Below are positions 45,906 to 48,525 of a DNA stretch of 64,000 nt, piece by piece. Source of the DNA: Candidatus Poribacteria bacterium. GTDB taxonomy: Bacteria > Poribacteria > WGA-4E > WGA-3G. Below the pieces are notes generated by a model, which was given only the letters and a program-made list of their open reading frames with translations, ran no database searches and was not told the origin of the DNA. The stretch spans positions 3,808,001 through 3,872,000 of the forward strand of contig CBDANF010000003.1 in the NCBI GenBank assembly GCA_965197475.1, given 5' to 3'. Position 1 is the stretch's first letter; every line of letters starts with the position of its first letter. Made by a program: the position numbers and the translations under genes.

Positions 45906-46104
45906 TTCCTGAGAGAGTATGAGTAAAGAAAGTGCTGTTCTATCAAAGCATTTTGCTTGTTCTTTAGATTCTTGTATGCTATAATAATTGAGAATTGTGA
46001 CGTAGATCCAACAAGATAGTGAAATGCATTGTCTCCAGGGTTTCATCCGCCATTGAAAATAGATACATCTTTTGAGACAGTATACATACTATACGACTAA
46101 TTTT

Positions 46105-46425
46105 ATGCGAATAGTTCGAGAAAATGAATTAACGAAATTTGCTATACGACATCCTAATACACGAGATTCTCTTAACCGTTGGACACAATTGATGAGGGAA
46201 GGAAATTTTAAGTTAATTATTGAGTTGCGTGAAACGTTCGGACGCGTTTCTCCAGTGAAGGTTCGTCCTCAAAGATTTAATCGCAACCCAATTACACTGA
46301 CGGTTTTCAACATTAGTGGAAATGATGCTCGCCTGATTACAGTTGTTCAGTACACAATGCAGGTTGTGGTTATTGATCAGGTGTTAACTCATAACGAATA
46401 TGATACAGGAAATTGGAGAAAATGA
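46105..46425 (+). CDS. higB: HigB-family mRNase toxin
   Basis: MRIV...F..RHP...L..W, VFNISGN..RLI, LTHNEYD.G.W. Confidence 0.85.
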   Translation: MRIVRENELTKFAIRHPNTRDSLNRWTQLMREGNFKLIIELRETFGRVSPVKVRPQRFNRNPITLTVFNISGNDARLITVVQYTMQVVVIDQVLTHNEYDTGNWRK

Positions 46426-46428
46426 ATT

Positions 46429-48525
46429 ATGTTAACTGAGATGTCTATTGGACAAAAATTGTCACAAACATCAACATATTCAGAATCTAATTTCTCCCTT
46501 GATTACACTGAGATTAGCACTTTACTCCAAAAAGAGGCAATTGCTGAGTTCAGTGTGAAGCAGCTGAATATGATGTCGGAATTTGCACCTGAAATTTTGA
46601 TGTTTCCTTCTGAACCAAAGCATACCTCTACACAACAAATTGAATTTGATCCTTACCCAGAAAGCGATTACGAATGGCTTGAGGAAGTTCTAAAAGGGTT
46701 AACTGACTTAGTAATGCAAAACGAGAATCATGATTTTGCCTCATTGACAAAAACTGATTATAAAAGACTTGATGAAACGTTGAAAGAGTTAATCTATATC
46801 GTCGGTGATAATGATGAACATCCCTTGGCATCATTGATGGATTTTATCGGTGTTCTCACCACAAAGTATGAAAATGATCATTTTCCAAAACTGACAGATT
46901 TATTTCCTGAACTAATGGAAGGAGTAAATCCGAACTACATGAAAGATGAGGATAAAAGGGAAAATCCTACCAGTGCATCTGAAAAATCCATAAACGCTTT
47001 AGCCGCAGAGGCTTTTTTCTCCATCGGAAACCTTTTTTTGGAAGGAGGTAAGAAAAAAGATGCAATTTCTGCTTACGATCAGGCAATACGTTTGCATCGA
47101 AATTACGCTATGGCTTTCTACTATCGCGGCGAAGTTAAACGGGCACAGAGAAATTATGAATCTGCAGTTGACGACTTTAATGAAGTACTTCGGATTAATC
47201 CTGTTGATATTTATGCCTACCTCAGACGTGCCAGTGTAAAATGCGCGCTGAGTCAATATGAAACTGCTATTGCTGATTTCGATGAAGTTATCCAATTGAA
47301 TTCGGATGAAGTTTGTGTTTACTCTGCTTACCTCATTCGCGGTTGTATAAATAGGGTACTTGGTCAATATGAGGCTGCCATTACTGACGTTAATAACGCA
47401 CTTCAATTAACAGTGGATGAGACCTCTGTCCATATTGCTTACGCGACTCGGGGCGGTGCAAGAAACGCTCTTGGGCAACATAAGGAAGCTATTTGTGATT
47501 TTAACGAGGTTCTTTTACACAACCCAGATGATGGAACAACGTATTTTATGCGAGGGTACGCAAAGTCAGTGCTAGGTCAACATGAGGCTGCGATTGCTGA
47601 TTATAACGAAGCATTACACTATAACTCTGACGATGCGGAGACCTACTTCAGACGGGGACTAAGTAAGGTAATGCAAGAAATGTTGGATTCTGCCATTGCT
47701 GACTTTGATGAGAGTATCCGACTTAGACCAGATTATTTCTATATTTTCCTTATGCGGGGAGTAGCGATGTTCATGAAAGGGGAACTTGAAGAAGCGATTA
47801 AAGACCTCAATATAGCCCTAAACCTAAAAGTTGATTCTGCTATAGATATGACAGATTTTGCTTATTTCCTCCGTGGAAATGTAAAAAGTCTGATCGGACA
47901 GTACGCAGACGCTATTATAGACTATAGTGAGACCATTCGATTAAAACCCAATTATCCACAAGCATACAAAAGCAGAGGGGATGCAAAGCGGGAATTAGGT
48001 CAACTTGAAGATGCTATTGTTGATTATGATAGTGCTCTCTGCTTAAAACAGGATGCTGTTACCTATTATAACCGTGGATATATAAAAGGACAGTTAGAAA
48101 GACACGAGTTTGCAATTCGTGACTACAGCGAGGCTATCCGACTCGATCCAGATTATGCGTATGCTTACCTTAACAGAGGAATTGATCAAGGTAAACTAGG
48201 TCAACTTGAAGATGCTATTGCTGACTTTGATAAGACTATCCAATTAAATAAAGATTGTATCTATGCTTACCACAATCGTGGAATTTCTAAAATCTTACAA
48301 GGTAACTATGAAGATGCTATTGCTGACTGTACCGAATCCATCTGTCTTAGTTTGGATTATGCTGAAGCCTATGATACACGAGGTAAAGCAAATCTCATAT
48401 TGGGTAGAACTCAGGAAGCAAGAATAGATTTTCAAAAAACTTTGGAATTGGCAGAACAAGAAGACAACCAAGAACTTATAGATGAAGTTAAACAATCACT
48501 GCAAGAACTTGACAACACTGAGTAG
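46429..48525 (+). CDS. HigA N-terminal (toxin-binding) segment fused to a long TPR array
   Basis: DYKRLDETLKELIYIVGDNDEHPLASLMDFIGVLTTKYENDHFP followed by >12 TPRs (AY..RG...AI.DY..AI.L.P); no HTH. Confidence 0.8.
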   Translation: MLTEMSIGQKLSQTSTYSESNFSLDYTEISTLLQKEAIAEFSVKQLNMMSEFAPEILMFPSEPKHTSTQQIEFDPYPESDYEWLEEVLKGLTDLVMQNENHDFASLTKTDYKRLDETLKELIYIVGDNDEHPLASLMDFIGVLTTKYENDHFPKLTDLFPELMEGVNPNYMKDEDKRENPTSASEKSINALAAEAFFSIGNLFLEGGKKKDAISAYDQAIRLHRNYAMAFYYRGEVKRAQRNYESAVDDFNEVLRINPVDIYAYLRRASVKCALSQYETAIADFDEVIQLNSDEVCVYSAYLIRGCINRVLGQYEAAITDVNNALQLTVDETSVHIAYATRGGARNALGQHKEAICDFNEVLLHNPDDGTTYFMRGYAKSVLGQHEAAIADYNEALHYNSDDAETYFRRGLSKVMQEMLDSAIADFDESIRLRPDYFYIFLMRGVAMFMKGELEEAIKDLNIALNLKVDSAIDMTDFAYFLRGNVKSLIGQYADAIIDYSETIRLKPNYPQAYKSRGDAKRELGQLEDAIVDYDSALCLKQDAVTYYNRGYIKGQLERHEFAIRDYSEAIRLDPDYAYAYLNRGIDQGKLGQLEDAIADFDKTIQLNKDCIYAYHNRGISKILQGNYEDAIADCTESICLSLDYAEAYDTRGKANLILGRTQEARIDFQKTLELAEQEDNQELIDEVKQSLQELDNTE

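Follow-up and report, generated by a model that had tools for sequence, protein, structure and literature searches.

Organization of the locus

Within a 64,000-nt window from the genome of a Candidatus Poribacteria bacterium (GenBank assembly GCA_965197475.1, contig CBDANF010000003.1, positions 3,808,001 to 3,872,000 of the forward strand; coordinates below count from the first nucleotide of this stretch), two adjacent plus-strand genes at 46105..48525 encode a HigB-family protein and a 698-amino acid (aa) protein in which a module homologous to the N-terminal part of HigA is fused to a long array of tetratricopeptide repeats (TPRs). Considering their relatives throughout the phylum, the two genes are probably a higBA-type toxin-antitoxin pair with an unusual antitoxin body.

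The first gene, higB (46105..46425), encodes 106 aa and is assigned to the RelE-fold mRNA interferase family PF09907 by Pfam, Protein Data Bank (PDB) and PADLOC matches. Its product aligns to positions 2-73 of the 74 in the Pfam HigB_toxin profile (E 3.3e-18, 66.2 bits for a cut-off of 27), to E. coli-type HigB chains of known structure (5ifg_A, 5ycl_B and 6kml_A; E about 2e-4) and to the PADLOC model PD-Lambda-2_A (E 1.4e-15). The ATG at 46105 is the start that is kept among orthologous loci in the upstream alignment. Across 21 Poribacteria HigBs (alignment A4) there are 22 invariant columns, the family motifs VFNI.GN..RLI and LTH.EYD included; the window HigB is intact, retains both motifs and has every family-invariant residue. 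Proteins of the HigB family are ribosome-dependent mRNA endonucleases, and from its sequence we infer the same toxin activity for the window HigB. An insertion of 6-20 residues precedes the TVFNI strand in 20 out of 20 HigBs of alignment A4 paired with TPR-bearing antitoxins, and is absent from the HigB of a pair (L004, described below) whose antitoxin consists of the N-terminal module only. At the insertion site of the window HigB, the E. coli protein is 8 residues shorter in the structure-chain alignment.

The second gene, an antitoxin-like open reading frame (ORF) at 46429..48525, is separated from the higB TGA by a 3-base spacer, and a GGAGAA sequence lies 10 nt before its ATG, within the 3′ end of higB. 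Residues 1-72 form a leader (46429..46644) that is conserved among the closest orthologues and missing from the paralogues; it has no family match and is modelled with a predicted local distance difference test score (pLDDT) below 45, with a predicted helix at residues 27-52. Next comes the presumed HigB-neutralising part, hereafter the N-module (residues 73-160, 46645..46908), delimited by alignment and by an AlphaFold2 model. Thirteen of its positions are invariant in 17 sequences, orphans included (L84, L91, D93, Y111, L114, H131, L133, M137, Y147, E148, P153, K154 and L155), and helices are predicted with low pLDDT at residues 78-96, 108-125 and 134-150. The first helix is duplicated in tandem (residues 78-106 and 108-136, 46660..46836): both copies align over 29 residues without gaps, with a score of 61 that was reached by none of 5000 shuffles. 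Residues 110-153 (46756..46887) are the core of the module, with homology to canonical HigA over its residues 27-70 (BLASTP and hhalign). An acidic/polar linker with an FPEL... motif follows (residues 161-186, 46909..46986; pLDDT below 45), variable in alignment A1.

Almost all of the remaining sequence is taken up by tetratricopeptide repeats (46987..48459), recognised by Pfam, by motif spacing and in the AlphaFold2 model. Pfam TPR_1 (E 2e-73) matches in 12 stretches from about residue 190 to the end and, given that 13 A-x-D-F-type motifs spaced by 33-39 residues are completed by one last repeat, the protein is counted as having 14 TPRs. The best-conserved repeat in alignment A1 is the first (A192, A193, F196, G200, G206, A212, A215 and Y216). 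A C-terminal cap helix (..ELIDEVKQSLQELDN, residues 681-695, 48469..48513, from the model) closes the array, and the preceding ..DFQK.LELAEQ.. motif plus cap also terminates related antitoxins as well as other TPR proteins encoded in this genome. The model, built on 17 sequences, has 28 paired helices and the cap helix over residues 183-698 with pLDDT mostly above 90, and places the first 186 residues at low confidence only; a low-confidence N-terminal part beside a confident solenoid is as expected if the former is an antitoxin segment that folds on binding.

Pfam and NCBIfam scans of the 698-aa protein returned TPR families alone and no helix-turn-helix (HTH) family. No NTPase or other Avs-like or signalling domain was found by Pfam, and the PADLOC scan gave generic TPR matches alone. 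The start of the protein, judged by eye, is not signal peptide-like. These results bear out the description given in a sequence-only reading of the same stretch, which had noticed higB followed 3 bp later by a 698-aa gene, a HigA N-terminal signature at residues ~80-155 whose first helix appears twice, and more than 12 TPRs where HigA has its HTH.

Homology of the N-module to HigA

The most direct evidence for the identity of the N-module comes from a plasmid of Acinetobacter baumannii (CP042210.1). Between window residues 110-153 and the annotated HigA of that plasmid (residues 27-70), identity reaches 45% (BLASTP E 6e-11), and a 26-sequence N-module profile matches the same HigA with an hhalign probability of 97.9% (E 3e-13). 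Similarly, tblastn with the stand-alone module P0072 matches the 5′ part of genes annotated as 'Antitoxin HigA' or 'helix-turn-helix domain-containing protein' in 71 plasmid records; in CP042210.1, the match falls in higA, immediately 3′ of higB.

A phmmer search with residues 1-185 against 1.84 billion representative proteins returned 219 matches with E up to 1e-3, which were sorted into four groups by reading the sequences. Besides TPR-fused proteins, there are many stand-alone proteins of 57-110 aa ending just past a ...YEDEHVPELTE motif. A few matches combine the module with another small antitoxin-like part (e.g. AF2212-like in P0066), and the members of the last group, 132-143 aa long, carry HTH_3 at their C-terminus (P0138, P0140, P0162 and P0163, E 3e-5 to 1.4e-4). 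Within the last group, HTH_3 is found by Pfam in P0138, P0140 and P0163, and P0163 and P0140 align almost end to end to E. coli HigA 5ifg_B (E 5.5e-11 and 2e-10, respectively). The link of the N-module to the annotated Acinetobacter HigA is thus direct, and the link to E. coli HigA runs via HTH-bearing intermediates and the plasmid HigA. Searched by itself, the N-terminal part (residues 1-194) gave no match to solved structures up to E 10, and in Pfam a chance-level match to PBP_sp32 alone (E 0.027).

In E. coli, it is the N-terminal region of HigA that reportedly holds HigB, according to work by Yang et al. in 2016 and Jadhav et al. in 2020. The HTH of E. coli HigA lies at the C-terminus, as stated in a published account (PMC7984235).

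Distribution and pairing with HigB

Whole-genome searches found the N-module in 136 of the 176 genomes of the phylum, with 1 to 9 matches per genome; the figures are 107 of 133 for good-quality genomes of the phylum and 106 of 111 for the family of the window organism. A pattern scan with one genome per species retrieved 78 loci, 75 of them in records of Candidatus or uncultured Poribacteria and three in records named 'uncultured bacterium'; since the patterns are specific to the Poribacteria-type module, absence of the fusion from other phyla cannot be concluded from it. Among related proteins, 14 with the fusion measure 417-519 aa and are 52-59% identical in the N-terminal part. The only relative to which a source gives a name, P0226, is a 'tetratricopeptide repeat protein'; the other relatives looked up are nameless or 'hypothetical protein'.

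A search for higB neighbours in other genomes, proposed in the sequence-only reading, found the same arrangement repeatedly. Considering the 87 N-module ORFs in the 78 loci from other genomes (L007-L084), a HigB ORF lies at most 60 bp upstream of 58; the spacer measures 3 bp in 39 of these, and in 51 the HigB is 95 aa or longer. Each of the 58 paired ORFs has 60 aa or more of C-terminal tail, and none of the nine short N-module ORFs has an adjacent HigB. In the window's own genome, three out of three N-module copies adjoin a HigB. The genes higB and the 698-aa gene are, in short, adjacent, co-oriented and conserved as a pair, which is the arrangement expected of type II toxin-antitoxin genes.

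One of the two other copies in this genome shows the N-module without further domains. On contig 3 (L004:1162-3140), a 95-aa HigB free of the insertion is followed by a 105-aa antitoxin that consists of the N-module only, with neither HTH nor TPR, and the pair adjoins an N6/N4 DNA methylase gene. The 105-aa protein belongs to a 90% cluster of 16 members, and 11 of the 15 listed members are exactly 105 aa long; the N-module therefore occurs without any C-terminal domain, and the 105-aa protein appears from this cluster to be a stable form.

Locus history, promoter and transcription

Eleven of the 13 closest loci have the same flanks: upstream lies a gene for an S13 D-Ala-D-Ala carboxypeptidase, and downstream lie the genes for PhyH and a molybdopterin oxidoreductase. 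A citramalate/isopropylmalate-synthase-like gene also belongs to this conserved synteny (11 genomes), and the flanking proteins are 72-96% identical across the syntenic loci. Given the conservation of these flanks in 11 loci, the pair is old, chromosomal and located outside a defence island. The gene 3′ of the antitoxin is the convergent PhyH dioxygenase gene, and there is no third co-oriented gene. Among the 11 syntenic orthologues, the antitoxin measures between 440 and 739 aa, from which we conclude that whole repeats are gained and lost with frame and cap maintained. One syntenic orthologue has an additional 186-aa ORF with a partial N-module match (L013:2119-2679), located between the S13 peptidase gene and higB.

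Approximately 125 nt upstream of higB, alignment of orthologues reveals a TGnTATAAT motif resembling an extended -10 element (45978..45986, plus strand). In eight out of eight aligned orthologous upstream regions the TATAAT (45981-45986) is invariant and the TG is kept, with a variable intervening base. A sigma-70 scan found promoter-like sites no commoner than in shuffled sequences and none upstream of higB; it passed over TGnTATAAT because there is no good -35 hexamer there. From its conservation, the motif is a candidate promoter for the pair.

An independent study provides DNA contigs for 45952-46481 and 46454-48438, which run across both the higB-antitoxin and the N-module-TPR junctions. 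Together with the recurrence of the fusion in many independent assemblies, they rule out a one-off assembly chimera, which the sequence-only reading had named among the things that would overturn its proposal. RNA-seq contigs (X17 and X18, two libraries from a single study) match parts of higB and of the antitoxin gene, among them 46395-46641, and leave other stretches uncovered; they are compatible with expression and do not prove it.

Modular relatives and reuse of the TPR body

The 87 N-module ORFs were sorted into four forms. The most numerous (form A/other, 44 ORFs, HigB upstream in 33) have TPRs, many ending in a cap like that of the window protein. In form B (17 ORFs, HigB upstream in 13), TPRs and cap are followed by a tail containing ...RRGGQWKGKVKIAEDFDELPESF..., and in form C (17 ORFs, HigB upstream in 12) approximately two TPRs precede a ~140-aa HSDR_N-like domain. 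The short form lacks a C-terminal part altogether (9 ORFs, HigB upstream in none).

Many Poribacteria proteins of ~80 aa have a C-terminus that matches the form B tail; the local BLASTP alignments show 70-89% identity and extend over roughly one half to two thirds of the query (63 residues). Among these ~80-aa proteins, some bear PF02604 (PhdYeFM) and some are named 'prevent-host-death family antitoxin'. Against Pfam, the tail itself gives a weak match to DUF2281 (E 0.021). In six of the 17 form B loci, which have HigB upstream, a PIN-domain (VapC) gene overlaps the antitoxin stop codon; the two such genes tested match the Pfam PIN family with E 1.3e-15 and 4.7e-17. The resulting order, HigB, HigA-N-TPR antitoxin with Phd-type tail, PIN (VapC), is found at L033:2329-4856 and also at L026, L027, L050, L053 and L059. 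Going by these matches, the six form B proteins would have a toxin-binding segment at each end and are encoded between two different toxin genes.

Form C loci (L020, L025, L030 and 14 more) contain ORFs of ~360 aa, for instance L025:5968-7083. The ~140-aa domain at their end has an ..ECK.. motif and a borderline HSDR_N_2 match (E 2e-5, 24.9 bits for a cut-off of 25). HSDR_N_2 is the N-terminus of the R subunit of type I restriction enzymes. The HigBs paired with form C antitoxins have a loop insertion of ~20 residues.

The TPR-plus-cap module is also present outside this antitoxin family. In the window's own genome it ends three proteins with unrelated N-terminal parts (C1:30459-32048, C3:1603182-1604768 and C2:1432474-1433994); judged by eye, these parts resemble a secreted protease of trypsin type in two of the proteins and an FRG domain in the other. 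Another locus encodes a 944-aa protein (L021:3129-5963) with a predicted membrane anchor, more than 20 TPRs and the same cap motif at its end; it is followed there by an orphan gene of N-module, TPRs and tail and then by a complete pair of HigB and TPR-antitoxin.

Comparison with known systems

The closest known counterparts are the HigB-HigA pairs of E. coli K-12 and Acinetobacter (YgjN-YgjM; 5IFG, 5YCL, 6KML), which share with the window pair the toxin-first order and a PF09907 HigB. The homology of the antitoxins lies in the N-terminal helix-loop-helix segment of the Acinetobacter-type plasmid HigA (45% over 44 residues). E. coli-type HigA ends in a C-terminal HTH_3, whereas Pfam and NCBIfam detect no HTH_3 in the window antitoxin; relative to the E. 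coli-type pair, the window pair adds the duplicated first helix, the 72-residue leader, the 14 TPRs with their cap and the loop insertion of HigB. The HTH of canonical HigA dimerises and binds the operator; lacking it, the window antitoxin would form no dimer through an HTH and would not bind an operator. More generally, type II antitoxins usually combine a toxin-binding segment with a DNA-binding domain that autoregulates the operon.

In the defence system PD-lambda-2 (Vassallo et al. 2022, PMC9519451), the first gene is HigB-like, the second encodes a HigA-like fusion of Xre and peptidase, and the third, related to a P4 antitoxin, is required for defence. Its likeness to the window pair is a HigB-like first gene followed by a HigA-like part fused to a further domain. 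PD-lambda-2, however, keeps the Xre HTH and a peptidase, and the window protein keeps the N-module with a TPR array and has no third gene beside it. Membership in PD-lambda-2 was rejected since the 698-aa protein has neither HTH nor peptidase and the next gene is the convergent PhyH gene.

In the toxin-antitoxin-chaperone (TAC) module HigBAC, lambda major tail protein is reported to act as trigger via the contact between antitoxin and chaperone (PMC11980606). HigBAC and CmdTAC resemble the window pair in having an antitoxin whose function, through an added segment, comes to depend on a further protein-protein contact, and one such contact is reportedly the site of action of a phage protein (PMC11980606; bioRxiv 10.1101/2024.02.24.581848). 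TAC modules have a SecB-like chaperone gene and a short ChAD tail, whereas the window locus has neither and its extension is a folded solenoid of 510 residues. With no SecB-like gene and no third co-oriented gene in the operon, it was not counted among the TAC modules.

Phd/YefM antitoxins with PIN (VapC) toxins are related to our family through the tail of the form B relatives and the PIN gene found 3′ of six of them; the window protein, in contrast, ends at the cap helix, without such a tail and without a PIN gene 3′.

The Avs/STAND sensors are similar by analogy, in that a long TPR array belongs to a protein associated with a toxic effector. We take TPR arrays to be the sensors of Avs systems, with a central STAND NTPase between effector and TPR sensor. 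The window protein has no NTPase, and its effector would be a separate small RNase, held by the antitoxin module and not fused to it. Because residues 1-185 have no family match and the remainder is TPR, it was not assigned to Avs/STAND.

A proposed TPR scaffold in place of a DNA-binding domain

We consider it probable, if well short of certain, that higB and the 698-aa gene are a genuine higBA-type pair in which the antitoxin uses its TPR solenoid as a protein-binding scaffold body that does not bind DNA. In this view, the two genes would make up a type II operon of higBA type on the chromosome of a member of the phylum Poribacteria, with the toxin gene leading. Transcription would probably start from the conserved TGnTATAAT promoter, and the 3-base spacer together with the Shine-Dalgarno sequence inside higB suggests that the antitoxin is translationally coupled. 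The N-module (residues about 73-160) would neutralise HigB, and it probably acquires its fold only when bound to the toxin. The 14-repeat solenoid has taken the place of the canonical HigA HTH; with the HTH replaced in this manner, the antitoxin would not autoregulate its operon by binding DNA. Instead, the solenoid may serve as a scaffold that bears short toxin-neutralising segments and sets the stability and the partners of the antitoxin, a role that we infer because the TPRs are internal in form B and the TPR-plus-cap module is promiscuous.

Several observations weigh against this proposal. A HigB ORF within 60 bp upstream is missing for 29 of the 87 N-module ORFs (28 loci), and traces of HigB remain upstream in seven of these 28 loci, as five short remnants and two C-terminal HigB halves. 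In the 13 closest loci, HigB is broken or missing in four (an in-frame stop in L014 and L015, loss of the N-terminal part in L018, absence in L019), with the TPR gene open in all of them. The paralogue on contig 2 of the window's own genome (L002:27-1347) repeats the picture: its 530-aa TPR antitoxin is intact and its HigB is split by an insertion of ~1 kb encoding an IS1595/ISXO2-like transposase, after which the remainder of HigB (..IRHVITHEEYDKGSWKR) stands directly 5′ of the antitoxin. Given that HigB is absent or broken beside open TPR genes and that so many ORFs are unpaired, the TPR protein may act independently of the toxin, or many pairs may be decaying. The homology argument has its own gap, since the N-module profile (A2) retrieved from PDB designed Kelch proteins and weak chance matches and missed E. 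coli HigA, so that the link to the latter is transitive. Finally, a scaffold role alone leaves unexplained why there are 14 repeats and why their number varies from ~6 to 15 between orthologues.

The sequence-only reading proposed a sensory function for the repeats. A phage or host protein bound to the TPR solenoid would free or destabilise the N-module, and the HigB so released would lead to growth arrest or abortive infection. TPR arrays serve to bind proteins, and the fast variation of repeat number and sequence between orthologues might fit a surface engaged in an arms race; the number of repeats, however, changes freely even between orthologues, and their internal position between two toxin-binding ends in the relatives suits a scaffold at least as well. 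Genes of the HigB family are found in phage defence systems together with unusual second genes of several domains, for instance in PD-lambda-2 (PMC9519451), whose first model the window HigB matches, but the second protein has generic TPR matches alone in PADLOC and no NTPase or signalling domain in Pfam. HigBAC (PMC11980606) offers a precedent with the lambda major tail protein as trigger; for the window protein no ligand is known. One paralogous pair adjoins a DNA methylase gene, yet the pair studied here has a conserved housekeeping neighbourhood in 11 genomes, and not that of a defence island or a mobile element. On these grounds, gating by a sensed protein receives no specific support, and we see it as a possible but unlikely function.

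A bolder variant, which we offer as speculation and hold to be improbable as a whole, combines sensing with the double-ended relatives. Poribacteria would possess 'hub' antitoxins whose solenoid bears short neutralising peptides at one or both ends (HigA-N against HigB, a tail of Phd type against VapC) and is itself the receptor, so that binding of a phage or sponge-host protein, or loss of a partner, frees one or two RNase toxins. If true, this would amount to a ligand-gated toxin-antitoxin switch without transcriptional autoregulation.

The repeats could also insulate paralogues from each other, if the first conserved TPRs touch HigB, for example at its loop insertion, so that up to nine pairs in a genome avoid cross-talk. 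The occurrence of the insertion in every TPR-paired HigB and not in the HigB of the N-module-only pair, the conservation of the first TPR above all others and the 1-9 copies per genome would agree with this idea. Nevertheless, because insertion and TPRs may share one origin, their correlation counts as about one independent event, and the repeats beyond the first two would be left without explanation; we regard insulation as rather doubtful.

Finally, it is very improbable that the locus is decaying or domesticated, with an inactive HigB, a relic N-module and the TPR protein acting alone as a 'eukaryote-like' protein of a sponge symbiont: the broken or lost HigBs beside open TPR ORFs and the unpaired ORFs listed above would fit, but the window HigB has all family-invariant residues, the 13 invariant N-module positions hold in orphans too, the protein does not begin like a secreted one, and 51 of the 87 ORFs directly follow a HigB ORF that is 95 aa or longer.

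Significance of a probable TPR-bodied antitoxin

Among the papers listed by the literature searches (subscription journals and supplements outside the scope) we found none on a HigA-TPR fusion or other TPR-bodied antitoxin. The design is common and modular across the phylum Poribacteria, where the HigA toxin-binding segment behaves as a free module that stands alone or is joined to an HTH, to TPRs, to TPRs and a nuclease-like domain or to TPRs and a second antitoxin tail. If the pair is active, it would be a natural case for studying toxin-antitoxin control without an operator-binding antitoxin, what a large protein-binding domain adds to an antitoxin and whether one antitoxin holds two different toxins. 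For the sponge symbionts, which are uncultured organisms, it would add a concrete function to part of their large and unexplained TPR repertoire.

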